DNA of 64,000 bases from Candidatus Multivorans sp. (GCA_965247095.1 OZ251997.1:3520001-3584000), one strand, 5' to 3'. Positions 1,780-27,413 are shown, counted from the stretch's first letter. Notes: generated from the sequence alone by a model not told the origin. Program-made: numbers and translations.

Positions 1780-2958
1780 CTAGCCAAGGGCCTCGGGCCT
1801 CACGACCACCGGCACACCGCCGTAGCGCCCGCCCAGGTAGCCGCGCATCAGGGCTTCGTCCTTCCGTGGACGGTACTCCGACAGTGGCGTCAAACTTGCC
1901 GCTTCCGTCAGCCGGTCCTTCTCCGTGAGCCACACTTGGCCACGGTCCAGCTCTTCCTGGAGCAGGGTGACATCGTGAACGGTCGTCACTAGCTGGCCTC
2001 TACACCGGTTCGCTCCGGCCTGCTGGTTGAAACGCTGCACGAGCGCGGCGACCAGGAAAGGGTGGAGGCTGCGGTCCAGTTCATCGATGACGACCACCCG
2101 GTCGTGTTCGAGAACGTATCCGGCCAGGGCGAAAAAGCGTTGGGTTCCGGCCGACTCCGCCTCCAGTGCCAGGCTGTGCCACTCGCCGCTGCCGCCGGGC
2201 CGGTGAACCAGTTGCAACTCTTCCTTCTCTATGTGCACGTCGTCGAAGGCCATGTCCGCGGCTCTCAGCAACTCCAGCACGCGCCGTTTCGTTTCTTGGT
2301 CTTTGTCAACCGCCCTGGCCGTGTAGACGGGGGGCAAACCGCCGGGGCCGATAGTTCGCAGTTCGCGGAACCAGTCGACGACCGGTCGAAAAGTCTCGCT
2401 GTTCAACTGCACCGCCGTTGACAGGAACAGCGCGTTGGGCCGGGTGTTGTCCCGCCACACGCTCTTTGAGCCGCGAACCGATGGGCCGAACGCATATTCC
2501 TCCTTGCCCGTGTCGGGATCGGTGAAGCGATCCAGCAGCCGGCGCATCCTTCCGCCTGGCGGCCACGCGAGCAACCACTCGCGGTGCACGCGAACAGCGT
2601 CCACCGCGAAGCCGTACTGGTACAGCGTGCCGTCCTGAATGAACGCCGTCTCGAACACCGTCGGGCTCTCCCGGCTCTGGTCATCGAACAGGAAGGGCTC
2701 GTGGGGAATCGCTTCTCCGGCCTGGTTCTCCTTGGACGAGTTCAGGACGAAGTGTCGCGCGAAGCGGAGGCCCTCGACGAACCGGGACTTGCCGCTGCCG
2801 TTGGGACCGTAGAGCGCAGCGACGCGGTTGAGCCGTGGCGCCTGCCGTACGTCCGTGTCGAAGGCGAAGCGGTCAGCCGTTCCCTTGACGGCCTCCATGC
2901 TTAGCTCTTGCTGGTCCCGGAAGCAGGCCCTGTTGGTGATGGAAAAGGCGACAAGCAT
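1780..2958 (-). CDS. AAA_21 family ATPase (RloA/AbiEii-associated type)
   Basis: MLVAFSITNRACFRDQQELSM start, Walker A GPNGSGKS, ESAGTQR signature, Walker B IDELDRSLH, C-terminal YLGGRYGGVP. Confidence 0.85.
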   Translation of the reverse strand: MLVAFSITNRACFRDQQELSMEAVKGTADRFAFDTDVRQAPRLNRVAALYGPNGSGKSRFVEGLRFARHFVLNSSKENQAGEAIPHEPFLFDDQSRESPTVFETAFIQDGTLYQYGFAVDAVRVHREWLLAWPPGGRMRRLLDRFTDPDTGKEEYAFGPSVRGSKSVWRDNTRPNALFLSTAVQLNSETFRPVVDWFRELRTIGPGGLPPVYTARAVDKDQETKRRVLELLRAADMAFDDVHIEKEELQLVHRPGGSGEWHSLALEAESAGTQRFFALAGYVLEHDRVVVIDELDRSLHPFLVAALVQRFNQQAGANRCRGQLVTTVHDVTLLQEELDRGQVWLTEKDRLTEAASLTPLSEYRPRKDEALMRGYLGGRYGGVPVVVRPEALG

Positions 2959-3283
2959 GGGTAGCTCCAGTGAATAAGATGGCAAGTTTACCTGAATCCC
3001 GCAAGAATAGCGAGTTGTTTGCCCTCTGATGCGCGATTAGACGATCACCGCTTCGCGACGGCGTTTTCTCTGAAGCGGGTCAGAAGACCCGCGCACCCAG
3101 TTGCGCCACCGTCGGGGTGGCGACGCTCTCTACTGCAGTTGGGCCCGCATCCGGCGCGCACGAGCCTCGCATCCGGTGCCGCGACCCGCACGCCCCGGCC
3201 CCACCGTCAAACATCCTTGCCCGTTGCGGCGCCCCGCCGCGAACGCTACTCTCCCCAATGCCCCGCCTCTTCCAAGTCACCAC

Positions 3284-4462
3284 TTGGCCGGCCCGCGCAA
3301 TATCGCACTCTGCTTCGACGGCACCTGGAACAGCGACGACAGTGCGTCGCCCACGAATGTCGTCAAAACGAGCCAGGCGCTGCTGCCGCAGACGGCGACG
3401 GGCACATGGCAGCTTGGCTACTACGACCGCGGCGTCGGCACCGGGCGCTTCGACCGGGTGCGGGGCGGGGTGGTGGGGCTGGGCCTCGCCCGGAACGTGG
3501 AACTGGCCTACGTCTGGCTGAGTTCGAACTACCGCCCGGGCGACCGGCTCTTCCTGTTCGGCTACAGCCGCGGGGCCTACACGGCGCGCAGCCTGGCCGG
3601 GTTGCTCGGCCTCTGCGGCGTTCCCGACCCGGAGCGCAGCGCCGCCGCCGGCCTCGGCGTGGCGGATGTCGCGCTCCAGGGCATGGCGATCTATCGCCTG
3701 CTGCCCGGCGCCGACCGCAGCGAACGCGCCGCGTGCCACGTGGAGACCTTCGCCGTGACCGCGGGCGCGGCCGGCCGCCTGGGGCTGCCCGCCGCCGGCC
3801 CCCCGTGCGCGGTCCACTTCATCGGCGTCTGGGACACGGTCGGCGCCCTCGGCGTGCCGGTGACCTGGCTGAACTGGATCGGCGCCCGCCGCCACCGCTT
3901 CCACGACGTGCGGCTCGACCGGCACATCCGGAATGCCTGCCACGCAGTGGCGATCGACGAGGGCCGCCGCCCCTTCGCCCCCAGCCTGTGGACGAACCGG
4001 CCGGCGCCCGGCCAGAACGTGGAGCAGCTCTGGTTCCCGGGCGTTCACAGCGATGTCGGCGGCGGGGGCCCGAGCACCGGGCTCTCCGACTGCGCCCTGC
4101 TCTGGATGTGGAGCAGGGCCCACGCCGCCGGCCTCGCCCTCTGGCCCCATCTCGTCCGCGCCGGCCTGGCGCCCAACGAACTCGGCCCGCGGGGCGACTC
4201 GATGTCCCTGGTCTACCGCCTCTGGGGCCGCTACGACCGGCCGATTGGCGAACGGCAGGAGAACGGCTGGCCCCTGGTTACGGGCGAGAAGGTTCACTAC
4301 TCCACCATGCGGCGCCTGGAGGCCCGGCAAACCAGCGCCTACTGCTACGGAACCGCCGGCCGCACCCTGCTTCCGGCCCTGGAGCGCGACCTGGTCCGCG
4401 TGGCGCCGCCGGCGCCGGGCGAGGAGTACCCCGGAGAGTTCGCCTGGGACATACCGCCGTGA
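3284..4462 (+). CDS. DUF2235 (Tle1-like) alpha/beta hydrolase / phospholipase
   Basis: Motifs ALCFDGTWN, TNVVK, YDRGVGT, GYSRG (GxSxG), GVWDTVGALG, HAVAIDE, WFPGVHSDVGGG. The start codon is uncertain (TTG 3284 chosen). Confidence 0.85.
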   Translation: MAGPRNIALCFDGTWNSDDSASPTNVVKTSQALLPQTATGTWQLGYYDRGVGTGRFDRVRGGVVGLGLARNVELAYVWLSSNYRPGDRLFLFGYSRGAYTARSLAGLLGLCGVPDPERSAAAGLGVADVALQGMAIYRLLPGADRSERAACHVETFAVTAGAAGRLGLPAAGPPCAVHFIGVWDTVGALGVPVTWLNWIGARRHRFHDVRLDRHIRNACHAVAIDEGRRPFAPSLWTNRPAPGQNVEQLWFPGVHSDVGGGGPSTGLSDCALLWMWSRAHAAGLALWPHLVRAGLAPNELGPRGDSMSLVYRLWGRYDRPIGERQENGWPLVTGEKVHYSTMRRLEARQTSAYCYGTAGRTLLPALERDLVRVAPPAPGEEYPGEFAWDIPP

Positions 4463-4542
4463 CGGCCGGCTGCGCCACACCCCCGCCAGCGGACCCCCTA
4501 ACCCCAATCCCCTCAATAATTTGACTCCCACACCCCCGCCCC

Positions 4543-4571
4543 TTGACGTATTCCCCCGAAGGCCCTATAGT
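4543..4571 (+). promoter_or_regulatory. Sigma70-type promoter TTGACG-N17-TATAGT
   Basis: -35 at 4543-4548, exact 17-bp spacer, -10 at 4566-4571, in an AT-richer intergenic patch. Confidence 0.75.
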
Positions 4572-4577
4572 GTTGAG

Positions 4578-4920
4578 CCTCGGAGGAACTGAATTGGCAG
4601 GAAGGCCTTGTCGATCCGCCCGCGCCCCCGGCGTTCTGCGACGTGTAGCGCGACTGGATCTATTCGGCCGTTTCGGCTAGGGTTCCACCTACGATTGGAC
4701 AGACGGCCTTGAAGTCTTTTATCGGGAGGTGATGCGCAGCATCAGCGTGTGACGGTCGGCGGCTCGGTTCAGCCGGGATTCTGATCGTCCAGAGAGAAAC
4801 GTCAGCGGCCATGGCAGCGCGGAAACTCCGCATCGCCGATGGCCTGATCTTCGGATCGAAAGAACAACCGGGCCGGCAAACGGCCCGCCCGGTAAACGAA
4901 CGGCGGCTCAAGGCCGCTCA
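4578..4920 (+). ncRNA. Candidate long structured 5' leader / cis-regulatory RNA
   Basis: No convincing ORF between the promoter and the RBS at 4921. Successive stems: GGCCAT(4807)..ATGGCC(4844), GATC-TTCG-GATC (4846-4857, cUUCGg), GGGCCG-GCAAA-CGGCCC (4870-4886), GCGGC-TCAAG-GCCGC (4903-4917). Confidence 0.5.
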
Positions 4921-4936
4921 AGGAGAAAACAAACTG

Positions 4937-5941
4937 ATGAAGCTGATGAAGCACATCATGATCGCGCTGGTACTCTGCGCGATTCCTGCGATGGCCTTCG
5001 GTCAGATCGGCTCAGCCGATCCGGCCATGGTCAATGTCGACTGTCCGGACGACGAGTGCCACACGGCCCCCATCTTCAAGGGACAGGGCGGTTTTGTGGG
5101 CGCGGCCGCCATGGACGAGAGCGTAGTCACGGTGATCGTGAGTTGCGGCGCCGTGACGACAAGCATGGAGGCGAACCAGGACGACGAGGGCATCGTCCGT
5201 CAGTTGTTCACCTATGACAACGGTCTCGCATGCGATGACGGCGGCTCGATCGACATCAGCGGCCTTGCAGACGGCGGCTGGTACTGGATCCAGGATGAAA
5301 CGAACGCGGCGGTGTCCAGCTTGTACGCCAAGGACACCCTGGGCGACGACATAACCATGCCGACCAATCCGGGCGGCGTCGAGATGACGGTGGAGGCTTA
5401 TGCAACCTACGTCAGGGACCCGAACAGTGGTCGTGTCGGGATCATCCCGCACGTCCTGCCGATGCCGCCGATGCCGGCGTGCAGTCCCGACCTGCAGAAC
5501 AACTGCATGGTGAATGCTGCCTACAGCCTGGCTCTCACTGACGATGCGGACGAGGCAGTTGGTGATGCGGTGGAGCGCGGTGCGGCCCCGGTCGTGGTCA
5601 CGCCAAGTGTCGCGGCGACTGGCAACTTGGAGGATGGCACTGGAGAGGCCTTCTCGGCCACAATCGGGGGGGGACTTACAAACGGAGTCACACAAGCGAC
5701 CGGGACAGTCACCATTGCCGCAGCGGGCGCTAGTGACGATCGCTGTCTCGCCACCAACATCGACAGAGGTACCCCGATCATGGTCACCGTCAGCGCCGAT
5801 ACTTCCGGTGCAACCGGGTACATCCCCGAAGTGGGGGCTCTCGCCGATCGGTCGTTCATGGTCACCTGCCCCCCCGTGGCGGCAGCGTCGAACCAGGGCG
5901 TGGACCTCGTTCCCGAGAACCCGTTCCCGGTCGGCCGGTAA
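4937..5941 (+). CDS. Secreted acidic Cys-paired protein, paralog 1 (putative major surface/filament subunit)
   Basis: RBS AGGAGA at 4921; signal peptide MKLMKHIMIALVLCAIPAMAFG; motifs CPDDECH, GQGGFVG, GGWYWI, SGRVGIIPH; C-terminal tail VPENPFPVGR. Confidence 0.8.
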   Translation: MKLMKHIMIALVLCAIPAMAFGQIGSADPAMVNVDCPDDECHTAPIFKGQGGFVGAAAMDESVVTVIVSCGAVTTSMEANQDDEGIVRQLFTYDNGLACDDGGSIDISGLADGGWYWIQDETNAAVSSLYAKDTLGDDITMPTNPGGVEMTVEAYATYVRDPNSGRVGIIPHVLPMPPMPACSPDLQNNCMVNAAYSLALTDDADEAVGDAVERGAAPVVVTPSVAATGNLEDGTGEAFSATIGGGLTNGVTQATGTVTIAAAGASDDRCLATNIDRGTPIMVTVSADTSGATGYIPEVGALADRSFMVTCPPVAAASNQGVDLVPENPFPVGR

Positions 5942-6008
5942 GGGAACAACAGGGTCTTGTGGCCTGAGGGTCTTCAAGAGACCTCTCGGGACATAGAGAA
6001 CCACTTTT

Positions 6009-6064
6009 GAGCGGCGCCTCCGCGTCGGGTATTCGCCCGGTGCGGAGGTTGCCGCTCTTCTTCT
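6009..6064 (+). terminator. Long hairpin followed by a T-rich tail after paralog 1
   Basis: GAGCGGCGCCTCCGCGTCGGGT-ATTC-GCCCGGTGCGGAGGTTGCCGCTC followed by TTCTTCT. Confidence 0.65.
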
Positions 6065-6181
6065 ATCTGGCGACCCTCGGCCCGCTAATGCTCCGCTAAT
6101 GCTGTAGAGTCCCAGGTCCCCAGGTCCGATCTGCCGGGATCGCGTCCGTGAGTGCCGGCAGGCGCCAAGGAGAACGAACAG

Positions 6182-6385
6182 ATGAGGACCCTCTTTGTCG
6201 GCGTGTTGCTCGGCGCCGTTCCGGCGGTGGCGGTGAGCCAGGTCGGTGAGGCCGAACCGGCGACCGTCGCGGCCGGGGGCCCCTGCGTCGGGCAGGAGAA
6301 CGTGTCCAACCACGGCCCGCCGCGCCCTCGTGGCGTCATCGTTGCCGGATCCAGGGTCGTGCGACGGCCCCGAACGGGGGTTTGA
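6182..6385 (+). pseudogene. N-terminal remnant of another paralog of the secreted family
   Basis: Upstream caaggagaacgaacagATG mirrors caaggagaaaacaaactgATG of paralog 1. The signal peptide is followed by QVGEAEPATV (paralog 1: QIGSADPAMV), then similarity is lost. Confidence 0.55.
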
Positions 6386-7410
6386 CGCGGTTGAAGCAGA
6401 TCTTCGCTCATCTCCTGGTCGGTACGGTTCCCGCACTGGCGTTGGGCCAGAGCGTCAACGTCGTGTGCCCTGCCGATGCCTGTCACTTCGCACCCTACTT
6501 CCGGGGTGAAGGCGGCTTCGTTGGCGAGCGGGCGCCGACTCACGTGGACGACGGTGGCGAGCCGCTGCCGATCCGATTCGTGCTGGATTGCGGGCGGGTG
6601 ACGGTGTCCGGCGAGTTCGAGCCGGACGCGGACGGAATTGTGCGCCAGCTACTGACCGGGCGACAAGGTCTGGCCTGCTGGGGGGACGGCGGTACCTTCG
6701 AGCTTCAAGGTCTCCGCGACGGGGGGTGGTACTGGATCAACGATAGGAGGAACTCCGCGGTCTCCACCCTGTTGAGGCTGGGCGCCCGCGACAATCCGGA
6801 GACGATCCCGCTCGACCCCGGCGGCGTGACGATGAGGACGATCCGTAAGGGCGCCGCGACCTACGTGAAGGACGAGTTGAGCGGCCGCGTCGGCATCGTC
6901 CCGCACATCCTGCCCGTGGCGGAGATTCCGGGTTGCAGCGGTGAGGCGACCGAGGGTGAGGCTTGCGTCCTGGGGTCGCCGGAGGATTGGTCTCTCGTGC
7001 TGACGACGGGCAATAGCGATGCGCCCGTCGGATCGGAGGCGATCGAGCGGGGAGCGAACGTGTCGGTCAAGGTCAGCCTGGTGGGACGCAACTTCGTCAG
7101 GACGGGGACCGTGGTGACGGACATCTCTCTCTCCGGCGGCGCGCGCGGCGGGACGATCCTGAGCGCCCCGGAAGCAGTGACCGTCTCGGGTACTTCGCCG
7201 GACCCCGTCGAGGGCGGCGAGGTGGCGTGGACGGTCCTGGTGGCCGCCGACCCGGACCGCTGCGCCGCGACGCATCCGGACCGGTTCATCGAGCAGGCCG
7301 TTGTGGTTACGGCTTCTGCCGCGTTGACGGGCGCTCTTCCGGCCTTCGCCGCCGGTGAGGGTCCATCGGCCGGCTTCACGATCAACTGCCCGGATTCGGG
7401 CAGCCCGTAG
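6382..7410 (+). CDS. Secreted Cys-paired protein, paralog 2 (lacks the VPENPFPV tail)
   Basis: Signal peptide; CPADACH, GEGGFVG, GIVRQL, GGWYWI, SGRVGIVPH, ERG, FTINCP shared with paralogs 1 and 3. Confidence 0.8.
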   Translation: MTRLKQIFAHLLVGTVPALALGQSVNVVCPADACHFAPYFRGEGGFVGERAPTHVDDGGEPLPIRFVLDCGRVTVSGEFEPDADGIVRQLLTGRQGLACWGDGGTFELQGLRDGGWYWINDRRNSAVSTLLRLGARDNPETIPLDPGGVTMRTIRKGAATYVKDELSGRVGIVPHILPVAEIPGCSGEATEGEACVLGSPEDWSLVLTTGNSDAPVGSEAIERGANVSVKVSLVGRNFVRTGTVVTDISLSGGARGGTILSAPEAVTVSGTSPDPVEGGEVAWTVLVAADPDRCAATHPDRFIEQAVVVTASAALTGALPAFAAGEGPSAGFTINCPDSGSP

Positions 7411-7509
7411 CCGCATCGTCGGTGCGAGCCTTCTGGCCTGCCCATCCGGGGGCTGGGCCATGTCGAGTCCGTGTGCGCCCATAGGCGGTGCATCTAGCTG
7501 ACGTGATAT

Positions 7510-8027
7510 ATCGATGGTTTGAAGGCCGGCGGCTGGTACTGGATCGACGACGTGACGAGCTCGGCGCTTACGGCCCTGATCCCGAAGGACATCCTCGGAA
7601 ACGACCAGATGGAGCCCACCGATCCGGACGGGGTCACGCTCCGTACCGCGGAGGACGGCGTCGCCACTTTCGTCAAGCACACGCCGAGCGGGCGGGTCGG
7701 CATCATCCCCCACATCGTTCCCGAGAAGCCGCTCCCCGGTTGCACCGGCGCGGTGGGAGAGGCCTCGGCCGCCGACTGCCATCTGGGGTCACCGTCACCC
7801 TGATGGGAGCGAAGTTCCTCACCAGCGGCACGGTCTACGCGACGGCGGTCGCCGACTTCCATTCCAGCGTGCAGGCGGTCTCCATCTCGGTCGCCACCGT
7901 CGAGGAGGTCATCCCGCCGCTCGACGCAGGTGGCATCGAGATGACATTCACGATCAACTGTCCATATAGCTCGGCGGCAAGCATGGGCGCGGCACTTGTG
8001 CCCGAGAACCTGTTCCCGGTGGACAAG
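7510..8027 (+). pseudogene. Paralog 3 of the secreted family: 5'-truncated, internal deletions, frameshift near 7790
   Basis: One frame gives IDGLKAGGWYWIDD...SGRVGIIPHIVP...CHLGS; another continues VTVTLMGAKFLTSGTV...FTINCPYSSAASMGAALVPENLFPVD. Confidence 0.75.
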
Positions 8028-8347
8028 GAGGCGCATCGACGGCTCTTGGCGGGCCGCCTTCGGGCCGCCGCACGCGGTGTTTGCGACGCCCCCCAAATCG
8101 CTGGAAACAAACGGCTTCCAGAAGCAATATAAGAACCGGGACGGTTTTCCGTCTTAGTCTGTAGAAGCGCTACTTCCACGCAGACCTGCGGGTCACGGAA
8201 CTCCGGTCGACTTCTTCCGGGGTTCGCCGAGAGGCCGCAGCGAGCGGGAGGGCGTTTCGGGGGGTCGGCCTGTTCCGGAGAAAAGGGGCACCTCCAAGGG
8301 CCGGCACCCCGTCTCATCTGTGGAATAATCCGGGTTCCGCTGGCCCC

Positions 8348-8641
8348 GTGGAGCATAGAGTGGTGCATGAGGAACGCAACGGGCTCAGCCGAGTTGCCGC
8401 CTGGGTAGTTTGCCTGCTGGCGGCTGTGCCGGCTTCCGCAACGCTCTATCTGCTGACGCCGGACGAAACCCTGCTCGGGCAGGCCGACCTGGTGGTCTAC
8501 GGCGGCGTCCGGCTCGACGAGCAAACGGGAGATCCCGGCCAAGGTCGTCTACGCGGGCACGAACGAGCCCGGCAACGCGGCGCCTGCGATCACGGACACG
8601 GAGGCCTTCGCTTCCGCCTGTCTGGGATAATCACCGAGTGA
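8348..8641 (+). pseudogene. Truncated secreted-protein remnant (signal peptide plus N-terminal segment)
   Basis: AWVVCLLAAVPASA followed by TLYLLTPDETLLGQADLVVYG resembles N-termini of acidobacterial secreted proteins (from recall). Coding character is lost after about 55 codons. Confidence 0.35.
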
Positions 8642-8683
8642 GGATCCGCGCGAAGACACCAGGGCCTTCCCGGAGGGCTGCAA

Positions 8684-9481
8684 GTGGGTGATGCGTCTCT
8701 CGGCGGCCGGCGTCGCCGGCAGCACCTGTTCCTGCTGCGCGAGCTGGTGGTGCGGAACCTCCGGTCGCGTTACGCGGGTTCGGCACTGGGTCTCGTGTGG
8801 TCGCTGCTCAACCCGTTGTGGCAGCTCCTGCTGTTCACGTTCGTGTTTTCGTTCGTGCTTCGCTTCCCGCTCGATGGAGAGCAGACCGACAGCTTCGCTG
8901 TCTTCCTGTTCTGCGGGCTGTTGCCCTGGTTCGCGATCCACGAGGGGCTGAGCCGTTCCGCGTCGGCGATCACGGACAATCCCGACCTGATCAAGAAGAT
9001 GCGGCTGCCGGGGGAGCTGCTGGTGGCGTCCATGGTGCTCGGCGCCCTGCTCCACGCCGGGGTGGGCGCCCTGGCGTTCATCGTTGTCCTGGCCGTGATG
9101 GGGGAACTCTCCGTCGCCAGCCTTCCTCTGCTGCTGGTCGCTGTGCTCCTGCAGGTGGCGCTGACCTTCGGCCTTGGATTGGGTCTGGCGGGGGCGAACG
9201 TCTACATCCGGGACGTCGCGCAGGCCGCGGGCCTGATTCTGAATACGTGGTTCTACGTCACGCCGATCATCTACTCGGTGAACGTGGCCCGGAATGAGAC
9301 CCTTCGGCAGGTGCTGGAGCTCAACCCACTGACGGGTCTGGTCTACCTCTACCGGGCCGCGTTCCTCGGCGGAGGGCTTCGGGTCAGCCTGGTTCCGCTT
9401 CTTGCCTGCGCCGCCGGCGCTCTCATCCTGGGCGGCGCCCTGTTTGCCCGGTTGAAGGATGGTCTTGCGGATGAGATCTGA
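8684..9481 (+). CDS. ABC-2 type polysaccharide export permease (Wzm/TagG-like)
   Basis: RNLRSRYAGSALGLVWSLLNPL, FYVTPIIY, LNPL, about 6 TM helices. Confidence 0.9.
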   Translation: MGDASLGGRRRRQHLFLLRELVVRNLRSRYAGSALGLVWSLLNPLWQLLLFTFVFSFVLRFPLDGEQTDSFAVFLFCGLLPWFAIHEGLSRSASAITDNPDLIKKMRLPGELLVASMVLGALLHAGVGALAFIVVLAVMGELSVASLPLLLVAVLLQVALTFGLGLGLAGANVYIRDVAQAAGLILNTWFYVTPIIYSVNVARNETLRQVLELNPLTGLVYLYRAAFLGGGLRVSLVPLLACAAGALILGGALFARLKDGLADEI

Positions 9482-13901: not shown

Positions 13902-14005
13902 GGCTAGCGCGGCAGTATCGTCGCCGCTTCGCGGCGCGTTTCCTCTCGGAAGCCGGCGGGGGCGCCGGCGCAGCCAGTTTCTGCCGCGCACCCTCCCAGG
14001 TCCGT

Positions 14006-14422
14006 TCAGGCTACGAAGTAGGCCGAAGAGCGGATCTGCACCCGCGTCCGCGGCTGAAAGCCGCCGCCGTGAAGCCGGAGCGCCGTATCCCCGGAGAGCA
14101 CCGGCAGGACGATCCAGCCGTCGAAGGTCTCGCCCCGTTGGTACGGGGACACCACCGGTTCCAGCTCGGCGAGCCGCGTCCAGTGACCGTCCTTGACGAA
14201 GTTCGCCCGCAGCTCGAGGTATGCCTTGTCCAGGTCGATGTTCTTGCCTTCCCGCGGGTGCCAGACCGAGACGACGAACCGCATCTCGTCGTAGCGGAGC
14301 GTGTCCACGCGCTCGCCCAACTCGTGCGCCAACGGGTAGACGAAGGCACCCATGCTGTCGGTCGCGAAAATCTCCGGCGTGGCCGTGAAGGCCACGTGGA
14401 GCGGCTGTACGTTCGGGCTCAT
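14006..14422 (-). CDS. Hypothetical protein (138 aa), now fused in frame to an upstream duplicated fragment
   Basis: MSPNVQPLHVAFTATPEIF... has coding-like composition. The longer track ORF includes the 14463-14652 repeat. Confidence 0.5.
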   Translation of the reverse strand: MSPNVQPLHVAFTATPEIFATDSMGAFVYPLAHELGERVDTLRYDEMRFVVSVWHPREGKNIDLDKAYLELRANFVKDGHWTRLAELEPVVSPYQRGETFDGWIVLPVLSGDTALRLHGGGFQPRTRVQIRSSAYFVA

Positions 14423-14462
14423 TCGGGGATCGCCGCCGAAGCGATGCAGGTTATCAGGCTGG

Positions 14463-14652
14463 CTTTGAAAGGCCCACAGGACGTAGCGACCGGCGTACTT
14501 CCGGCGGTACTCCTCAAAGTGCTCTTCGTAGAAAGCGACCTCTTCTGCGAGCGCCTTCTCGGTCATTGGGATCTCCTTTTCGACTAGCGACGATGTCGCC
14601 GTGTTCGTGAACTCGAACGAGAACACCCCCTCCGGCAACGACTCTAACCACA
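14463..14652. repeat. Internally deleted direct-repeat copy of 15766-16574
   Basis: 14477-14652 matches 16399-16574 (176 bp, 3 mismatches) and 14463-14479 matches 15766-15782 (ctttgaaaggcccacag). The two parts join at a shared CAG. Confidence 0.9.
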
Positions 14653-14674
14653 ACCCAGCGAAAGGAGATCCCCC

Positions 14675-15195
14675 ATGCAGGTACGACACCTGCCCCCCGA
14701 GGCGACGATCAGCGAGCGCGTCAAGGTGGTGCGGCAGTGGCGCCGGGCCATGTCGGCGGGTCTGACGTCCCGGGAAGCGGCTGACGCTGTGGGCGTGTCC
14801 CGAGCGACGCTGTACCGGTCGATCGCACCTCGAGATGGGCCGCCGCCCTGGCCGCCAGCCACGCCACCGCAGCCTCCGCCAAGCGGTTCCTCGACCACCT
14901 GGTCGAGCAGGCGCCGTTTGCGGTCCAGGCCATCCAGGTCGACGGCGGCAGCGAGTTCATGGCCGACTTCGAGCAGGCCTGCAAGCACCGAGGCATCGAA
15001 CTCTGCGTCCTGCCGCCTCGCTCACCACAGCTCAACGGCCGCGTCGAACGCCTCCAGGCCACCTTCCGGCACGAGTTCTACGCCACCTACCCTGTGCCCC
15101 ACCTGATTCAGCCGCTCAACCGATGCCTCCAGGACTTCGCTCACCACTACAACCACCAAAGACCACACCAGGCGCTCGGCGGCAGAACACCGTGG
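14675..15195 (+). mobile_element. IS481-like DDE transposase relic (HTH + rve core, middle deleted)
   Basis: HTH SREAADAVGVSRATLYR; integrase core IQVDGGSEF, PPRSPQLNGRVER, YNHQRPHQALGGRTP in a different frame. Confidence 0.8.
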
Positions 15196-15724
15196 CAGAG
15201 GACTGAGGGATCAGTACGAGAAAGCGCTTTTCTCGGCTGGTCTGGGGCGCCGCTATCACGACAAGCTAGAGCGTCACTACTCCGGCATGGGGTGGTGGAA
15301 CAGAGCCTTGTCCGTAGGAGCGGGCGGCGTGGCGGCTTTCGCCACGCACGATCGTTTCGACGACGAGGTCGGACTGGCGTTCCAGTTCGGCTCGGCGCTG
15401 ATCGTCGCTTTCCTGACGGCATGGCGGCGGGCTGCCGTGACGACCGAGCGCGTCTCGCTTCACAACCGCCTCAAGCGCCAGTTCGCCGAACTCGAACTGT
15501 TCCTCGACACCCATGATCCGTCGCTCGAGAGCCTCCGAGAAGCGAAGAAGAAGCGGGCCGAGATCGAGGACCAAGATCCCGAGACGCTTCGTCGCGTCCT
15601 GGCACGCATCTGTCACAACGAGCAACTGATGTCCTGGGGTGCGCCGAAGAATGAGTTCAGGCACGTTGGCTGGTTCCAGGCTCGCGCCGCCACGATGTTC
15701 AACACCCGCCTTCGGCCGAACTGA
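15191..15724 (+). CDS. SLATT-like 2-TM protein, native start probably removed by the adjacent IS relic
   Basis: The frame is open upstream of ATG 15287 (YEKALFSAGLGRRYHDKLERHY); two hydrophobic segments; LHNRLKRQFAELE...IEDQDPETLRRVLARICHNEQ pattern. Confidence 0.55.
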   Translation, partial: RGRGLRDQYEKALFSAGLGRRYHDKLERHYSGMGWWNRALSVGAGGVAAFATHDRFDDEVGLAFQFGSALIVAFLTAWRRAAVTTERVSLHNRLKRQFAELELFLDTHDPSLESLREAKKKRAEIEDQDPETLRRVLARICHNEQLMSWGAPKNEFRHVGWFQARAATMFNTRLRPN

Positions 15725-15791
15725 CGCCCCGCCCGCCCTCGTCGTCTACTTTGGTATGTAAGCCCCTTTGAAAGGCCCACAGTTGGCACAG

Positions 15792-16220
15792 CTAGTCGCC
15801 GTTCCGGGACTGGGTCGCCCAGCCCTCCTTGCCGTTGTAGACCAGGATTCCGTGGCGCAGGATGTCGCGACCGATGACCGCGACGTAGTCCAGGTTGGAG
15901 AGGTGAAAGCCGCGCCCGCGAAGGACCGTGAAGGTGCCGAAGCCGGTGATATCGACCTCTCCGAGCAGCAAAGGAACTTGGCCATCGTGTTGCCCTAGAA
16001 CGGTACTCAGTCGCCCGGTGCCGCTCTCGACCAACCCGGCCTGCCTGGCAGCCTTCAGGTCGAACGCCGTGACATCCGAGCCAGTATCGATGAGGGCTTC
16101 TCCCGTCACCGTTCCAGTGTGGACTCCAAGAGCCCGCCGCTCCCGCCTCAGATCCGGGGGAAGTCGAATCTCGACCTGGACGATGGCGCCGAAGTTCTCC
16201 CTAAGTTGGATTCTCGGCAT
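15792..16220 (-). CDS. Retropepsin-like (clan AA) aspartyl protease
   Basis: ALIDTGS catalytic motif and C-terminal VIGRDIL motif. Confidence 0.85.
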   Translation of the reverse strand: MPRIQLRENFGAIVQVEIRLPPDLRRERRALGVHTGTVTGEALIDTGSDVTAFDLKAARQAGLVESGTGRLSTVLGQHDGQVPLLLGEVDITGFGTFTVLRGRGFHLSNLDYVAVIGRDILRHGILVYNGKEGWATQSRNGD

Positions 16221-16488
16221 CGGAGGGTGTGAGGGTCTTCGTCACGATGGGCATCGCCACAATGGGAACGGCCGGTTCGCCGGCCTTGAGGACCAGGTAG
16301 CCGTGATCTTCCGTCCCCGTCTGCCACACTTGCCGGTAGCCGTCGTAGTTGGCCGCCAACTCATCCTCATACACGCCGATCAACTTGGGGCCGTGGATCA
16401 GGACGTAGCGACCGGGGTACTTCCGGCGGTACTCCTCAAAGTGCTCTTCGTAGAAAGCGACCTCTTCTGCGAGTGCCTTCTCGGTCAT
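16201..16488 (-). CDS. Small DUF5678-like protein coupled to the aspartyl protease
   Basis: RBS AAGGAG; MTEKALAEEVAFYEEHFEEYRRKYPGRYVLIHGPKLIGVYED; overlaps the protease start. Confidence 0.7.
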   Translation of the reverse strand: MTEKALAEEVAFYEEHFEEYRRKYPGRYVLIHGPKLIGVYEDELAANYDGYRQVWQTGTEDHGYLVLKAGEPAVPIVAMPIVTKTLTPSDAENPT

Positions 16489-16580
16489 TGGGATCTCCTT
16501 TTCGACTAGCGACGATGTCGCCGTGTTCGTGGACTCGAACGAGAACACCCCCTCCGGCAACGACTCTAACCACAGCCCTG

Positions 16581-16609
16581 TTGACAGGTGATAAGTGCCG
16601 CTTTACAGT
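16581..16609 (+). promoter_or_regulatory. Sigma70 promoter TTGACA-N17-TACAGT for a near-leaderless transcript
   Basis: Perfect -35, 17-bp spacer, ATG 10 nt after the -10 with no RBS; the -35 lies in the imperfect palindrome CTGT-TG-ACAG. Confidence 0.7.
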
Positions 16610-16618
16610 CGCTGGGCG

Positions 16619-19600
16619 ATGGCGAGACAGGAGGAGCCCAGGGCCGTCGGCGAACACATCAGGCGCAGGGTCATCCCGGTGGGGATGACGGTTACAGAGG
16701 CCGCCAAGAGACTGGGAGTGAGTCGGGTCGCGCTGTCCAACCTCCTTAACGACAGGGCCTCACTCTCGCAGCAAATGGCGCTTCGTCTGAAGACGGCCTT
16801 CGGTGCCGACCCGGAGGAGATCTTCCGAGTTCAGGCCGAGTCACAGAGCGGTCGGCGCCGCGAGGAGGAGCGGGCGATGGCCGTTCGGACCTACGTGCCG
16901 CCGTTTCTCACGATCAAGGCATCTCAGATAGACGCCTGGGCGGACCAGAGCGAGGAGGCACGGAGCCGCTTGCCGGTTCTGGTGCGGAGGTTGATTCGGT
17001 CGACAGGGCGAGACCTGCGCCAGTTGGACTTCCCGGGATACGGCGAAGGGCAGCGCCCGGGTTGGGACGGTCGGGTGGAGACCGGAGCCACCACACCTTG
17101 GATACCAGCGGGGGACTCCGGTTGGGAGTTGAGTACGTCCAGGGAACCGGCGCGCAAGGCCGACTCCGATTTCAAGAACCGGCTGGTTCTACCGGCGGAG
17201 GAGCGAGAAGAGACTACGTTCGTCTTCGTCTCGTCGCGCTGTTGGCCGAAGAAGAACCAGTGGGCAGAGCAGCGAAGGGCAGAGGGCCGTTGGAAGGACG
17301 TGCGGGCCCTGGATGCGAACGATCTCGAGCAGTGGCTGGAGGCGTCGATCGAGGGCCAGATCTGGCTTGCAGAGCAACTCAATCTACCTTCTCTCGAGGA
17401 TTGCGTGACCCTTGACCGAGCCTGGGAGCGATGGGCCGAGGTCAGCGCGCCGCCGATGCCGGAGGACATCTTCCGACCTTCGGTCGCTGGACATCTTGAG
17501 AAGCTCACCACTTGGCTGAAGGTAGCCAATCCGGAGCGCCCGTTCACTCTCGCGGCGGACTCGAAGGACGAGGCTCTTGCCTTCCTGGCATGCCTGTCCC
17601 GAGAAGAGCAAATTCCGGAGGAGTTCCGGGACCGCGCGGTCGTTATCAACTCGGCGAAGACCCTCCGAACCCTGGCCCAATCGACGTCGTCGTTCATCCC
17701 AATAGTCGGCGACGAAGAGACTGAGGGCGAACTCGCCCACTGGCGACATCACAGCATCGTCTGGCGGCCGCGCAATGCTGTAGGGGAACCCGATATGTCG
17801 CTCGGACCTCTGGGTTACGAGGCGTTCGAGAAATCCCTAACCGCCATGGGGTTTGAACGAAGGGACATCCATCGGTTGGCCCGGGAGTCGGGCCGATCGC
17901 CGACCATCTTGCGGCGCCGCCTCTCGGAGAACGACGCGATCAAGAGGCCGCGTTGGGCAAGGAAGAGTGAGATCGCACGGAAGTTGGTTCCGATGGCCCT
18001 CGTCGGGGCGTGGAAGGCCGATTCGAGAGCGGATTCGAAGGCCGATCGCGAGGTTCTCTCCACGTTGAGTAATCGCCCGTTCAGCGAGTTTGACGAGGAT
18101 GTCGTCGACTTGCTTCGGTTGGAAGACAGCCCCGTGTGGCTTGTCGGTAGACATGGTGGCGTCGTCTCGCAGATTGATGCGCTGTTTGCCGTTGGTCTGT
18201 ACGTGACGACTGCGGACCTGGACCTCTTCTTCGACCGAGCCGAGTTCGTGCTCTCGGAGCCCGACCCGGCCTTGGAGTTGGCAAGCGGCGAGAGATGGGC
18301 GGCAGCCGTCCACGGCAAAGTACGCCGCCACTCGGACTCATTGCGAGCCGGTGTATGCGAGACGCTCGTCCTGCTGGCAGTACATGGCAACACCCTGTTC
18401 CGAGGCGGGCTCGGAATCGACTTGGAAGCCCGCGTCGGCGATCTCGTCGGGCGACTCCTGACGCCGGAAGGAGGCGGGGCGCCGCTGAGCGCTGAGACGC
18501 TGATGTCCTATGACCGGGACCTCCCGAGGCTTGCCGAAGCTGCTCCGGACCAGTTCCTGCGGCTTCTGGAGGCGGACCTCCTGCGAGGGGACTCGGCCTT
18601 GTTCGAGCTCTTGGAGCCAGTCGCCCCGAGCATCTTCGCCGGTTGCCCACGGACCGGCCTTCTGTGGGCCCTGGAGTGCCTGGCGTGGAATCCGTCGAAC
18701 CTCCCGCGGGTCGCTCTGATTCTCGGCCAACTATCGACAAAGCCGATTGACGACAACTGGGTCAACCGGCCGATCAACAGTCTGGAGGCGATCTTCCGAT
18801 CCTGGATGCCGCAGACGGCGGCGTCCCCTAGTGCTCGGTTTCAGGCGCTTGAGCTGCTGTGCAGCCGCATCCCGGAAGTGGGTTGGCAAATCTGCATGGA
18901 GCAGCTCCGGCGCGGTCCGCGGACGGGGACTTACAGCCAGCAGCCGAGGTGGCGTGGCGATGCCGCGGACGCCGGAGACCCGGTTTCTCACGACGATCGG
19001 CGGGAGTTCGATCGCAGAACGCTTGAGTTGGCGCTGGAATGGCCGCGCCCGCGTGACGCCGACAAGCTCGGGGATTTGATCGACCTCCTCAGCGACATGT
19101 CCGACGAGAACCAGGGTCGGGTGTGGGCACTCATCGAAGAGTGGTTGAAACGTGAGCCGGGAGAGGAACAGAAGGCTGTCCTACGTGAGCGCCTCCGGCG
19201 CTTCGGCTACACCAGCGTCCGGCCCGCCTTCGCGGTCGAGCCCGCATTGACCGCGAGGGCGCAGGCGCTGTACGACCGCTTGGCGCCGGAAGATCCGGCG
19301 AGCCGCCACGCGTGGCTTTTCGCCGATCATTGGATTCACGAATGGCCCGAGGACTTCGATGACGCGATGGACTTCTCTGAGCGTGAGGAACGCATCAGGA
19401 ATCGGCGCACCGAGGCGATGACCGAGATCTGGTCGACTGAGGGCCTGAGAGGTGCCCTATCGCTCCTTCCCTCAAGCAACGCTGCCGACACGGTAGGCAT
19501 CTTCGCCTCGCGTTGCGTGCCCGGCCAGCACGCTCGGGCCGAAGTTCTCCGGGCCTGCCTTTCGGGTGACTTGCCTGCCGAGCTTGAGTTGGACGAGGCC

Positions 19601-20737
19601 AAGGTGGATGGATTCCTAGGAGGGTTCATCGGGGCAGTGGGAGAGGACTCGCGAGAGGAGTTGCTTCGCGGCCTTGCAGAGGAACTGCCTCGGGAACAGA
19701 TAGCTCGCCTCCTTCTTTGCGCTCCGTTCGGTCGGCAGACGTGGGGAATTCTGGAGCAGCAGGAGCGTGATGTTCGGGAAAGGTACTGGCGTGAAGTGAG
19801 TCCGCTACCTGGAACGGGAGTCACTGCGGACGAAGTCACCGCATTGACAGACCGCTTGCTCGACGCCGGTCGGCCCCGTGCCGCGTTCAATGCGCTTCAC
19901 CTGGCTTGGGACGGGGTCGAGACATCGCGGCTAAGGCGCCTGCTGAACGGGATCGTTGCCGGCAGTCCTGAGCCGGATGGCAGCATCAAGCTCGGCGCGT
20001 ATGACGTTTGCAGGGCGATCGAGTCCCTGAGCAAGAGGGCAGGGGTAGCCCGCGATGAGATGGCGGACTTGGAGTTCGTTTGCTCCGACCTGTTGGAGTT
20101 CGACGACTATGGCGTGCCGAACCTCGAGCGCCGAATCGCTGAAGACCCGAGCTACTTTGTTTGGCTTGTGGCGCTCGTCTACAAGCGGAAGGACGGCCGC
20201 GTGGATCCCGACGGATGGCCGGTGTCGAACCCGAAGAACAAGGCGTACTTCGGCAAGCTGGCTTTCTCCGTGCTTCTCAAAGTAGCGCGAATCCCGGGAA
20301 CAGAGGCCGGTGAAAGCGAGATCGATGCTAAAGCTCTCCGAGGCTGGGTGTCCGAAGTGAGACGACAGAGCACCGAGTGTGGTCGGGTCGAAGCTGCCGA
20401 CATTTGCATTGGCCAGCTTTTCGCCCAGAAGCCACCTGAGAACGGAAGCTCATGGCCTAGTCGCCCCATCTGCGAGGCCATGGAAGCTGTTGCGACGGAG
20501 AGCATTGCCAGTGGTTTCTATTCGGGCGTTGCCGACTCCCGCGGTGCCGTGATGCGCGCCGAAGGTGGCGGCCAGGAACGAGAACTGGCAGCCAAGTACC
20601 GAGCGTGGGCGGAACCTCTCTACTTCGAGTTCCCTTTCGTCGCGAGCCAAGTGCTGGAGCGAATCGCCAAGTCCTACGACCAGGAGGCGGCGTACTGGGA
20701 CTCGGAGGCGGAACTGGAGAAGCGGCTGGAGGACTGA
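16619..20737 (+). CDS. 1372-aa HigA/XRE-HTH fusion with a putative restriction-endonuclease-like domain and long helical C-terminus (candidate defence protein)
   Basis: N-terminal HigA-like TVTEAAKRLGVSRVALSNLLN...MALRL; then GWDGRV...GWELS (PD-(D/E)xK-like spacing); no intact Walker A seen. Confidence 0.75.
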   Translation: MARQEEPRAVGEHIRRRVIPVGMTVTEAAKRLGVSRVALSNLLNDRASLSQQMALRLKTAFGADPEEIFRVQAESQSGRRREEERAMAVRTYVPPFLTIKASQIDAWADQSEEARSRLPVLVRRLIRSTGRDLRQLDFPGYGEGQRPGWDGRVETGATTPWIPAGDSGWELSTSREPARKADSDFKNRLVLPAEEREETTFVFVSSRCWPKKNQWAEQRRAEGRWKDVRALDANDLEQWLEASIEGQIWLAEQLNLPSLEDCVTLDRAWERWAEVSAPPMPEDIFRPSVAGHLEKLTTWLKVANPERPFTLAADSKDEALAFLACLSREEQIPEEFRDRAVVINSAKTLRTLAQSTSSFIPIVGDEETEGELAHWRHHSIVWRPRNAVGEPDMSLGPLGYEAFEKSLTAMGFERRDIHRLARESGRSPTILRRRLSENDAIKRPRWARKSEIARKLVPMALVGAWKADSRADSKADREVLSTLSNRPFSEFDEDVVDLLRLEDSPVWLVGRHGGVVSQIDALFAVGLYVTTADLDLFFDRAEFVLSEPDPALELASGERWAAAVHGKVRRHSDSLRAGVCETLVLLAVHGNTLFRGGLGIDLEARVGDLVGRLLTPEGGGAPLSAETLMSYDRDLPRLAEAAPDQFLRLLEADLLRGDSALFELLEPVAPSIFAGCPRTGLLWALECLAWNPSNLPRVALILGQLSTKPIDDNWVNRPINSLEAIFRSWMPQTAASPSARFQALELLCSRIPEVGWQICMEQLRRGPRTGTYSQQPRWRGDAADAGDPVSHDDRREFDRRTLELALEWPRPRDADKLGDLIDLLSDMSDENQGRVWALIEEWLKREPGEEQKAVLRERLRRFGYTSVRPAFAVEPALTARAQALYDRLAPEDPASRHAWLFADHWIHEWPEDFDDAMDFSEREERIRNRRTEAMTEIWSTEGLRGALSLLPSSNAADTVGIFASRCVPGQHARAEVLRACLSGDLPAELELDEAKVDGFLGGFIGAVGEDSREELLRGLAEELPREQIARLLLCAPFGRQTWGILEQQERDVRERYWREVSPLPGTGVTADEVTALTDRLLDAGRPRAAFNALHLAWDGVETSRLRRLLNGIVAGSPEPDGSIKLGAYDVCRAIESLSKRAGVARDEMADLEFVCSDLLEFDDYGVPNLERRIAEDPSYFVWLVALVYKRKDGRVDPDGWPVSNPKNKAYFGKLAFSVLLKVARIPGTEAGESEIDAKALRGWVSEVRRQSTECGRVEAADICIGQLFAQKPPENGSSWPSRPICEAMEAVATESIASGFYSGVADSRGAVMRAEGGGQERELAAKYRAWAEPLYFEFPFVASQVLERIAKSYDQEAAYWDSEAELEKRLED

Positions 20738-20846
20738 ACCCGTGGGTCTGGGCTCGCTGCTTCGCGGCATCGCATTTGATGCCGGCGCACCGCCAGTTGT
20801 GCACACAACGACACGCCTGGCGTTGGCCGGTGCTACCGAAAGCGCG

Positions 20847-20976
20847 TTACTTCTTCTTCGGAGGCGGCGGAGGCCTGGCAGGCTTGATCTTCGCCGGTCT
20901 CGTCGGCTTCCCCGAGGGAGCCTTGCAGCAGCTCGTCGCGGCCTTCGCCAGCTCTCTTAGGCTTCTTGGATGGCAT
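20847..20976 (-). pseudogene. Small Lys/Pro-rich peptide ORF with a probable +1 frameshift
   Basis: RBS GGAGGG + ATG 20976 (MPSKKPKRAGEGRDELLQGSLG). Removing one G from a GGGG run gives KPTRPAKIKPARPPPPPKKK-stop at 20847. Confidence 0.35.
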
Positions 20977-21481
20977 ACCTGCCCTCCAGTAGCTGGTTGG
21001 CTTCCACGGTGGACCGCTCGTTCAGCCGCTGATTGGTCCGGAGGTCCACGTCGCCGGCTCGGCCGGTTGTACTCCCAATGTTGTCGGCCAGTTCCTTGAG
21101 CCGGGAGATGACCTCCTGCTCGCCGATCTCCTGCTCGTTGATCTCCTGCCACAGACGGCTGTAGTCGTCGGAGAGTCCCGCACAGGCCTGGCTGATGGCG
21201 AAGGATATGGCGGCTTTCCTGGCGTGGTCGCCCAGGAAGTCGACGGCTAGCAGGATTGCGGCGACCGCGCTGACACTCCAGATCACCCAGCCGGGGGCAT
21301 CCTGCAGTGCGCCAATGACGTTGCCCGAGACGGACAGAAAGATGAGAAGCCGGACGACTTGCCTCAGGAGTTGATAACGGTCGTAGAGCTTGTAGTAGTA
21401 GCGCTCTAGCCGGACCGCCTCAAGTTAGTCCAGCCACGCCTCGTTCCGCCGCGACTCACTGACTTCTGCTGTGGGCGCCAT
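20957..21481 (-). pseudogene. SLATT-like 2-TM protein with an in-frame TAA at codon 19
   Basis: RBS GGAGAG, ATG 21481 MAPTAEVSESRRNEAWLD*LEAVRLERYYYKLYDRYQ, then two TM helices; same frame as track ORF 20957-21286; stop at 21425-21427. Confidence 0.65.
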
Positions 21482-21562
21482 GGTGCTCTCCGTTGGGGCT
21501 GTCTTGTCCACATCCGTAGATCTGTCGTCGGTAGAGGATCCTAACAGCGGGTGTTGATGGCC

Positions 21563-22156
21563 TCACCCTCGCCGGAACGCCCTCACGTCACTGCCCGCCC
21601 CCTCGAACAACTGCCGCACCGTCGGCAACGGCAGGCCGACGACGTTGCTGTAGTTGCCGTCGATTTCGCTGACGAAGAGGGCGCCCAGGCCCTGGACGGC
21701 GTAGGCGCCGGCCTTGTCGTCGGGCTCGCCGGTGGCGGCGTACCAGTCGATCTGCTCGGGGGTCAGTTCGGCGAACAGGACGCGGGTGCTCTCGACGGCG
21801 TGCAGGGTGTCGCCGGCGGGGGGCTTGAGGGCGACGCCGGTGAGCACCAGGTGCCAGCGGCCCTGGAGCCGCTCCAGCATGTGGCGGGCTTGGTTGCGGT
21901 CGGCGGGTTTGCCCAGCACTTCGCGGTCAATCACCACGATGGTGTCGGCGGCCAGGACCCACTCGCCGTCCTGGGCACCGGCGTCGGCCTTCTCGCGGGC
22001 GAGGCGGCGCACGAGGTCGCGGGGCCGCTCGCCGTGACCGGGCGTTTCGTCGACGGTGGCGGGGCGTACCGTGAAGTCGAGGTCGAGGGACTCCAGGAGC
22101 TCGCGGCGGCGCGGGGAGGCGGAGGCGAGGACGAGGGGGCCGGGCGCCCTGCTCAC
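21563..22156 (-). CDS. maf: Maf-family nucleoside triphosphate pyrophosphatase
   Basis: LVLASASPRRRELL, AADTIV, GKP, DKAGAYAVQG, NVVGLP. Confidence 0.93.
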   Translation of the reverse strand: MSRAPGPLVLASASPRRRELLESLDLDFTVRPATVDETPGHGERPRDLVRRLAREKADAGAQDGEWVLAADTIVVIDREVLGKPADRNQARHMLERLQGRWHLVLTGVALKPPAGDTLHAVESTRVLFAELTPEQIDWYAATGEPDDKAGAYAVQGLGALFVSEIDGNYSNVVGLPLPTVRQLFEGAGSDVRAFRRG

Positions 22157-27311: not shown

Positions 27312-27413
27312 GGGCGACGGGGGTCCTTGGACGGGCGGCGGTGCTCGACGGTCAAGCGTACCGCTTCGGGAGGACGGCGCACCCAGTGCGCCTGAACGTA
27401 CAATCTGCGCACC

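Follow-up and report, generated by a model that had tools for sequence, protein, structure and literature searches.

Gene organization of the locus

The stretch of DNA analyzed here (hereafter, the window) comprises 64,000 nucleotides of the genome of Candidatus Multivorans sp. (GCA_965247095.1, OZ251997.1:3520001-3584000), which is a single contig of 4.62 Mb with about 68-70% G+C. Segment 4543-8030 of the window carries, all on the plus strand, a promoter, a long leader, and a tandem array of intact and decayed genes of one protein family. The locus is best explained as the main expression site, itself conserved, of a surface-directed protein family that is restricted to one genus and whose members would be Sec-exported, acidic, and disulfide-rich proteins built of two beta-sandwich domains.

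The promoter of sigma-70 type (TTGACG-17-TATAGT, 4543-4571, 10/12 consensus matches in the scan) is followed by a leader of about 360 nt (4572-4936), non-coding and partly structured according to an alignment of 30 leaders, at the end of which a ribosome-binding site AAGGAG (4920-4925) precedes the ATG at 4937. The first gene of the array (4937-5941) encodes a tailed protein of 334 aa, paralog 1 (P1). It consists of a Sec-type signal peptide (4937-5002), an N-terminal beta-sandwich domain, here called the N-domain (~5042-5461), an immunoglobulin-like (Ig-like) C-domain (~5504-5872), an Ala/Ser linker, and the tail LVPENPFP (5906-5929), the protein ending with LVPENPFPVGR. The gene is followed by a two-hairpin intrinsic terminator (5944-6066), whose second hairpin (~6009-6057) is succeeded by a T-rich run. 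Farther downstream lies a 5' stump (6182-6385, ATG at 6182) of a paralog that in relatives is intact and tail-less; the stump comprises a signal peptide and about 45 codons and weakly matches family residues 4-35. The next gene, that of the intact, tail-less paralog 2 (P2; 6382-7410), has a likelier start at the TTG at 6391, as indicated by comparison with homolog P0044; its product ends with TINCPDSGSP, stopping six residues past the conserved Cys-Pro, and shares 38% identity with P1 (E 2e-58). The last member (7507-8030) is an eroded tailed paralog that has lost about 100 N-terminal residues as well as an internal part, has a frameshift near 7800 and a tail mutated to LVPENLFPV, and matches positions 101-195 and 221-344 of the family hidden Markov model in two different frames (7507-7803 and ~7782-8030).

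An earlier note, made from this DNA sequence alone, had listed the elements of the segment 4543-8030 together with the motifs shared by the paralogs (GGWYWI, SGRVGI(I/V)PH, CxxxxCH, GxGGFVG, GIVRQL, and a terminal CP), and all of them were found where and as it described. Conservation places the key elements beyond chance: the promoter is kept in 29/30 homologous loci, the terminator in 10/10, and the tail in 103/120 listed homologs. Contigs of four DNA runs confirm the locus, with minor strain variants. One such variant, a second contig with 14 differences in 5618-5763, i.e., in the variable C-domain of P1 (depth of 17.8 vs. 48.6), represents strain-level variation within one sample.

Expression signals of the first gene

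The promoter is the sole sigma-70-like site in the region 4300-8700 (mean of 0.5 in shuffled sequences), and transcription would start near 4578. The 457 nt upstream of the P1 start show 73-95% nucleotide identity to their counterparts in 36 of 41 same-genus genomes, mostly present there in a single copy, as in the window genome, and have no convincing match outside the genus. Among the 30 aligned leaders, both promoter hexamers are retained in all except one, and a 41-nt core (4705-4745) is almost invariant. Inside this core, about 200 nt before the start codon, there is a perfect Shine-Dalgarno-like (SD-like) sequence, GGGAGGTGAT (4724-4733), which is invariant in 30/30 leaders and is followed by no conserved open reading frame (ORF). 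The leader also contains an invariant hairpin with a UUCG loop, and a further hairpin lies immediately 5' of the ribosome-binding site.

The consensus fold of the leader contains 73 pairs, with 97.1% of cells paired, of which three predicted helices overlap the promoter and are to be disregarded. The number of compensatory cells is 37, as compared to 15.2 +/- 3.9 in shuffles (0/500 shuffles reach 37), with the clearest covariation in one nine-pair helix; since the fold was derived from the same alignment, this covariation is taken as moderate support. Rfam gave no match in 4300-8700. The possibility that the ATG at 4811, used by gene callers, begins a coding extension of P1 was rejected, as this ATG is not conserved in the 30 leaders and the region covaries as RNA. 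The SD-like core may stabilize the mRNA in the manner of STAB-SD. The likeness to STAB-SD of Bacillus thuringiensis cry3A and to the long 5' untranslated regions (UTRs) of S-layer genes consists in an SD-like sequence within a long conserved 5' UTR, although those cases concern a different phylum.

At the other end of the gene, the region 5940-6075 folds at -68.8 kcal/mol (z -5.3; 0/200 shuffles as good) and includes a terminator-like scan site (6038-6054). In the ten aligned loci the second hairpin is nearly invariant, the first one is kept as a hairpin of differing sequence, and the last ~90 nt of the gene align together with the terminator, whichever gene type precedes. Taken together, these comparisons indicate that the P1 gene is a self-contained unit with a conserved promoter, a structured leader, a strong ribosome-binding site, and a conserved terminator.

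Distribution and novelty of the protein family

A word-indexed search returned 189 relatives, the few named ones being all annotated as 'hypothetical protein', and the N-domain profile matched only 224 of 1.84 billion representative proteins at E<=1e-3. The N-domain is present in each of 41 other same-genus genomes (2-45 matches each, with 6 in the window genome) and in 0/15 genomes from 12 other genera of the same taxonomic family. All related loci found in the species-representative collection are from metagenome-assembled genomes (MAGs) labelled Candidatus Multivorans/Multivoraceae, Thermoanaerobaculia, or with older Acidobacteria-type names. Based on isolate labels, we take these MAGs to be sponge- or coral-derived.

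The family could not be recognized by the author of the earlier note, and our searches agree with its being undescribed. Neither P1 nor P2 has a match above the cut-off in Pfam or any match in NCBIfam and PHROGs, and a profile search against PDB sequences gave only chance rows. ESM Atlas contains no P1 entry and nothing for the homolog P0029, and a tblastn search of GenBank phages gave no match. In the literature, the family motif strings were not found, save in an unrelated plant paper, and neither were the species and family names, while the genus name led to a single taxonomy paper; metaproteome supplementary tables, which lie outside this search, could hold P1 orthologs. Further literature searches brought no relevant title, and the passages of PMC6081418 that were examined say nothing of the P1/P2 family. 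We are highly confident that the family is a real one, undescribed, restricted to one genus, consisting of exported proteins, and provided with a conserved expression site.

Protein structure and the C-terminal tail

In the alignment of 48 full-length family members, the mature protein invariably begins with Gln, six Cys residues are invariant, the GGWYW and GRVGI motifs are present, and a Cys-Pro closes the folded part. The signal peptide of P1 ends with AMAFG. Mature P1 has a mass of 31.7 kDa, a pI of 4.05, and 8 Cys residues. In the AlphaFold2 model built with this alignment (mean pLDDT of 78), the N-domain of about 140 aa is all-beta (between residues 41 and 170, each block of 10 residues has a mean of 89-95), the C-domain is Ig-like (residues ~192-312, block means of 54-91, mostly 80-90), and the linker with the tail has a pLDDT of ~50. 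In a structural search against representative structures, the N-domain was best matched by TM1070 (Z 9.0 over 94 aa, rmsd 2.9), by the N-terminal domain of a GH32 protein (Z 7.2), and by a carbohydrate-binding module (Z 7.0). These matches to the TM1070/sensory-rhodopsin-transducer fold and to small carbohydrate-binding modules (1nc7, 2ii7, 5aot, and the 6nob N-domain, with Z of 9.0, 5.5, 7.0, and 7.2, respectively) are at identities of 7-11% (7% over 94 aa for 1nc7) and at Z near the background, and the profile search of PDB gave it no sequence-level relation to any solved structure. The C-domain matches many Ig-like domains with Z of 5-7, including those of S-layer proteins Sap and SbsC (Z ~6), cadherins, and pilus proteins; like the matches of the N-domain, these are middling and serve as leads only, as best Z values of 7-8 are common without true relationship.

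The C-terminal tail, (E/D)LVP(E/D)NPFP, occurs in the strict form P(E/D/G)NPFP at most 6 residues from the end in 103 of the 120 listed homologs, and several of the remaining 17 have near-variants or extra residues. Certain lineages have variants of their own, such as LLPDNAWSP and LVPENAFP. In the window genome, the motif has one occurrence, that in P1, and its back-translated form was found in 37 of the 41 same-genus genomes (1-6 each), as compared to 0, or once 1, for a reversed control. Twelve of 16 in-genus sites that were fetched are the ends of family members, including the 600-aa forms, three are orphan tail fragments, and one is a chance match, while four sites from outside the genus are chance matches in the interior of frames unrelated to the family. 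The matches differ from each other at synonymous positions of the Pro, Glu/Asp, Asn, and Phe codons, and therefore it is the peptide that is conserved; on the same ground, the tail as a mere DNA recombination arm was rejected.

Two functions had been suggested for the tail in the earlier note, that of a sorting signal and that of a donor strand, and its properties agree well with neither a known sorting signal nor a classical donor strand. A sorting signal of similar appearance, PEP-CTERM, which is common in the phylum Acidobacteriota, shares with the tail a short proline-containing VPE.P motif near the C-terminus of secreted proteins. However, family members end 2-6 residues past the motif and have neither a transmembrane helix nor a cluster of basic residues there, the motif is limited to one family, and the exosortase family PF09721 has no match in the genome, which is 98.96% complete. 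PEP-CTERM was thus rejected. As nothing membrane-spanning follows the motif and no exosortase was found, the tail is a signal private to this family rather than a known sorting signal. The presence of three prolines in seven residues and the pLDDT of ~50 in the monomer model make a classical donor strand unlikely as well. Probably, the tail is an assembly or retention peptide, which would dock on a partner subunit, with the conserved tail-less paralog serving as its dedicated, acceptor-only partner.

The N-domain as a portable module

Besides proteins similar to P1 and P2, the family includes long relatives in sister genomes, in which two N-domains stand in tandem, either at the very C-terminus or immediately behind the signal peptide (14/14 examined). 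Known domains were identified in 18 of 26 long relatives scanned, namely, subtilase (Peptidase_S8) with P-domain, matrixin (M10), reprolysin-like, Exo_endo_phos with LTD and fn3, LRR, cadherin-like, Calx-beta, CARDB, and FGE-sulfatase domains; no glycoside hydrolase was among them. No Pfam domain of Por_Secre_tail type is present on P1, P2, or the 26 relatives, and the assignment of the N-domain as a C-terminal domain of type IX secretion system (T9SS) cargo was rejected, because it also occurs N-terminally (P0189, P0252, and P0218).

The window genome has its own enzyme fusion, a 1214-aa frame at C1:1505532-1509173 (-) (locus L003), with an EEP-like (nuclease/phosphatase-like) domain recognized by motifs and fn3, which ends in a complete tail-less family unit; Exo_endo_phos, LTD, and fn3 were confirmed on its 1185-aa homolog P0129. 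Broken N-domain fragments are present at C1:4285821-4286477 and C1:3134556-3135287. Two further proteins, P0123 (785 aa) and P0124 (757 aa), have two N-domains each, and may be real proteins or results of a lost stop codon. P0123 joins a tailed unit to a tail-less one that has no signal peptide of its own, every homolog in its alignment being aligned to the first unit; P0124 ends in a degenerate tail. The P0123 fusion hints that the tailed and tail-less types may act together.

Gene order, allele replacement, and a phage-borne copy

The usual order across the related loci is the leader, a tailed gene, a tail-less gene ending at ...VVCP, and a tailed gene. Two or more near-full genes are found in 27 of the loci that have the leader, and 24 of these 27 arrays start with a tailed gene followed by a non-tailed one (exceptions: co, TTT, and occ). 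The layout that had been read from the window alone, i.e., promoter, first gene, terminator, and further paralogs, is therefore real and conserved genus-wide, and so is the tail-less state of the second gene. In a maximum-likelihood tree of 63 N-domains, the usual first, second, and last genes form separate clades. The window corresponds to the four-gene form of locus L009, in which two tail-less genes are enclosed by two tailed ones. Of the second gene the window retains the stump at 6182, and between aligned segments it is devoid of the ~1.2 kb that carry this gene in L009. P2 is the counterpart of the third gene of L009 (88% nucleotide identity), and P2 has tail-less orthologs in both L009 and L010. 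At the nucleotide level, the eroded copy is 82-84% identical to the tailed gene that comes last in L017, L016, and L009. With only P1, P2, one enzyme fusion elsewhere, and two domain fragments retained in the window genome, its array system is reduced to P1 and P2.

The leader-proximal genes represent two non-orthologous lineages in the N-domain tree, and P1 groups with the super-clade of 'last genes' and not with the usual first-gene clade. Between the window and its closest relative, L017, the upstream hydrolase gene, the leader, and the signal peptide are 94% identical, the tail-plus-terminator region is 74.5% identical, and the downstream genes are 88% identical, while the P1 body gives only short weak matches. 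This pattern indicates replacement of the gene body behind the leader between species. The first and second genes of L033, like those of L038, are identical in the second half of the N-domain and differ in the first half, which is indicative of recent gene conversion. Homolog P0011 is a chimera with a P2-like front and a tailed back.

One member of the family is carried by a virus. In the 15-kb viral contig L090 (12-6441), genes of the portal protein and large terminase are followed by the gene of a 525-aa tail-less family member with a signal peptide, which has 70% DNA identity to the first gene of L012 and in whose upstream region 33 nt of the leader core are preserved. Next to it there is a gene of a repeat-rich protein of 600+ aa with no family match. 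Long forms of 560-640 aa adjoin a recurring ORF in eight bacterial loci (L014, L015, L022-L024, L026, L027, and L043), and in L026 this ORF matches the phage-integrase Pfam family. Hence, the long forms may ride on integrated elements. Diversification of the family may be driven by phage or host recognition.

Discussion

A module that is common to a stand-alone protein and to many secreted enzymes, is found at either terminus, and occurs in multiple copies is the signature of anchors of the SLH or CWB2 type. The occurrence of the N-domain on secreted enzymes and adhesins, at one terminus or the other, thus argues for an anchoring or binding module and for P1 as a major surface protein. Our tentative reading, plausible but unproven and, in our estimation, somewhat short of an even chance, is that P1 is the major surface-coat (S-layer-like) protein, anchored by its N-domain and exposing a variable C-domain. 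The N-domain would anchor proteins to a cell-envelope glycan, which is suggested by the similarity of its nearest fold matches to carbohydrate-binding modules and by the position of the locus next to genes of an ABC-2 permease and a GT2 glycosyltransferase. P1 would be an abundant coat protein displaying its Ig-like C-domain, and surface enzymes would be attached by the same anchor, an arrangement known from the SLH and CWB2 proteins of Gram-positive bacteria. Of the interpretation put forward in the earlier note, the surface-layer-like role fits this pattern of a shared module, and the fimbrial part is not supported.

Well-known systems of this kind are those of Sap/EA1 and BSL proteins of Bacillus anthracis (SLH) and of SlpA and Cwp proteins of Clostridioides difficile (CWB2). 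The likeness consists in one module being present in an apparently major protein and in many copies on secreted enzymes and adhesins, in the acidity of P1, and in the weak fold matches of its C-domain to Sap and SbsC. The differences are that P1 has no Pfam domain at all (no SLH or CWB2 domain was found by Pfam or NCBIfam on P1 or P2), has eight Cys, a mass of 32 kDa, and a proline-rich tail, and belongs to an organism that is presumed, from its phylum, to be diderm. Another similar system is the sap locus of Campylobacter fetus, which has one promoter and homologs with a conserved 5' part and a variable body. The locus described here resembles it in its conserved leader and N-terminal part, variable body, single expression site in most genomes, and recombination among paralogs. 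In contrast to it, the genes described here are tandem, co-oriented, position-specific orthologs, their products have a Sec signal instead of type I secretion, and no inversion system was seen.

Several observations weigh against the surface-coat reading. For the strong expression that the earlier note ascribed to P1, the support consists in the conserved signals, and codon usage lends none: the codon adaptation of P1 is at the 20th percentile and its GC3 at the 9th. Codon adaptation is a weak measure here, because ribosomal-protein genes reach only the 61st percentile. S-layer proteins do not usually have eight Cys or a mass as low as ~32 kDa. In the monomer model the tail is disordered, a Foldseek search against PDB gave nothing at E<=1e-3, and the fold matches are of the middling quality noted above. 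No outer-membrane crossing route was identified, the genome having a single secretin. The N-domain could bind host matrix instead of an envelope glycan. As only two intact members remain in the window genome, the full array must be dispensable.

If the N-domain binds glycans of the sponge or coral matrix, P1 may be a secreted lectin or adhesin, an abundant host-binding factor with a host-interaction short linear motif in its tail, where NPF is invariant, and the enzyme fusions would be directed to the host matrix. This seems to us an unlikely alternative, but not an unreasonable one, as the family is confined to a genus that we take, from the origin of the MAGs, to be host-associated, the N-domain fold resembles carbohydrate-binding modules, and alleles turn over rapidly. 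The partner domains (proteases, FGE-sulfatase, LRR, and cadherin-like) fit interaction with a matrix. NPF is a ligand of eukaryotic EH domains; these, however, are cytosolic, while P1 is Sec-exported and no injection system was identified. Also, none of the 26 partner proteins scanned has a glycoside hydrolase domain, and a phage-borne allele fits a bacterial surface structure better. A family that is abundant but confined to the periplasm or envelope interior, for instance in a structural or buffering role, with the tail read by a periplasmic PDZ- or TPR-type protein or a protease, would explain why the Sec signal is the sole export feature seen and why no route of export through the outer membrane was found, and conserved disulfide cysteines fit the periplasm. 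We consider it improbable, because the partner domains (subtilases with P-domain, LRR, cadherin-like, Calx-beta, and CARDB) are typical of extracellular or surface proteins, and the fast allele replacement and the phage-borne copy suggest external exposure.

The polymer envisaged in the earlier note, a filament or pilus-like structure in which the tail inserts in the next subunit and whose cap or base would be the tail-less paralog, able only to accept a tail, would agree with the conserved layout of a major gene, a terminator, and minor paralogs, with the tail-less state of an otherwise intact second gene, and with P0123, in which the two kinds of unit are naturally fused. By eye, the tail (G-x-E-L-V-P-E-N) loosely resembles the last-strand motif of the N-domain (G-R-V-G-I-I-P-H), and pilins and pilus chaperones are among the weak fold matches (Z 5.4-5.8). 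The type V pili (FimA/Mfa1) known from Bacteroidia are similar in having two beta-sandwich domains with a C-terminal extension and operons that mix subunits with and without a donor element. Unlike them, the family has no lipoprotein signal and no fimbrial Pfam match, its tail is proline-rich, it belongs to another phylum, and its N-domain is also an enzyme module. The signal peptide is of the non-lipoprotein type, without a lipobox Cys (Gln, not Cys, at +1), and therefore the family fits neither of the known fimbrial classes. A Pfam scan covering 20 ORFs in 532-31454 of the window detected no chaperone, usher, sortase, or dedicated protease, i.e., no assembly genes near the locus. In the model of the C-domain the last strand is already in place before the Cys-Pro, the three prolines in the tail and its low pLDDT do not favor a strand, and the decoration of enzymes at either terminus fits an anchor better than a polymer subunit. 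We thus find a filament quite unlikely. Programmed antigenic variation, with one expression site and silent cassettes as in C. fetus sap or pilE/pilS, would account for the single leader in most genomes, for the conserved 5' arm (leader with signal peptide) and 3' arm (tail with terminator) flanking a replaced body, for gene conversion between neighbors and the chimeric P0011, and for the minor variant contig in the P1 C-domain in the DNA runs. The downstream genes, however, form position-specific orthologous clades across species, and their own signal peptides and intact frames indicate functional genes and not silent cassettes. No invertible segment or recombinase was found in the window locus, and the DNA contigs show no switching and contain no well-supported alternative joint, only one of low depth (4.27) with a side of 21 letters. 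Such a mechanism has, in our view, little probability.

The surface-coat reading can be extended to a genus-specific, sortase-independent display system of a diderm symbiont, in which the N-domain would anchor the coat protein along with dozens of enzymes and adhesins, bodies including phage alleles would be swapped at the landing pad formed by the expression site, and the tail, devoid of a transmembrane segment, would be a new assembly or sorting signal directed to the tail-less acceptor. In this full form we regard it as doubtful. Irrespective of the extension, the locus is a candidate for the major envelope protein of a whole symbiont genus, and its analysis defines a new portable protein module, present in 224 representative proteins, a new short C-terminal motif without known machinery, and a clear case of allele replacement at a fixed site. 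The conserved non-coding leader could serve as a genus marker or expression element. Hardly anything seems to be known of the structures that uncultured symbionts of sponges and corals bear on their surface, and the symbiont surface is the meeting place of host recognition and phage attack. If P1 is indeed a coat protein, antibodies or probes against P1-type proteins would let the cells be seen and sorted in host tissue, and the tail and the N-domain would be entry points to protein display in diderm Acidobacteriota.

Genomic neighborhood

Upstream of the locus there are two AAA_21 ATPase genes and a gene of a Tle1-like hydrolase, and downstream the ABC-2 permease and GT2 glycosyltransferase genes, followed by genes unrelated to secretion. 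Among the 60 related loci, the hydrolase, permease, and GT2 genes are syntenic in 25, 20, and 19, respectively. The AAA_21 (AbiEii-like) ATPase genes (532-1566 and 1780-2985, minus strand) are adjacent and could be a defense-type pair.

Elsewhere in the window, the G+C content is lower in 14001-22000 (0.63-0.645) and 50001-52000 (0.59) than in the background (~0.70). The former region contains several ORFs without a family match and the gene of a 1380-aa protein (16595-20737) with only an N-terminal HTH domain. Beyond it, 22153-24723 and 24720-27530 (minus strand) encode adjacent large paralogs with Big_7 and von Willebrand A domains.

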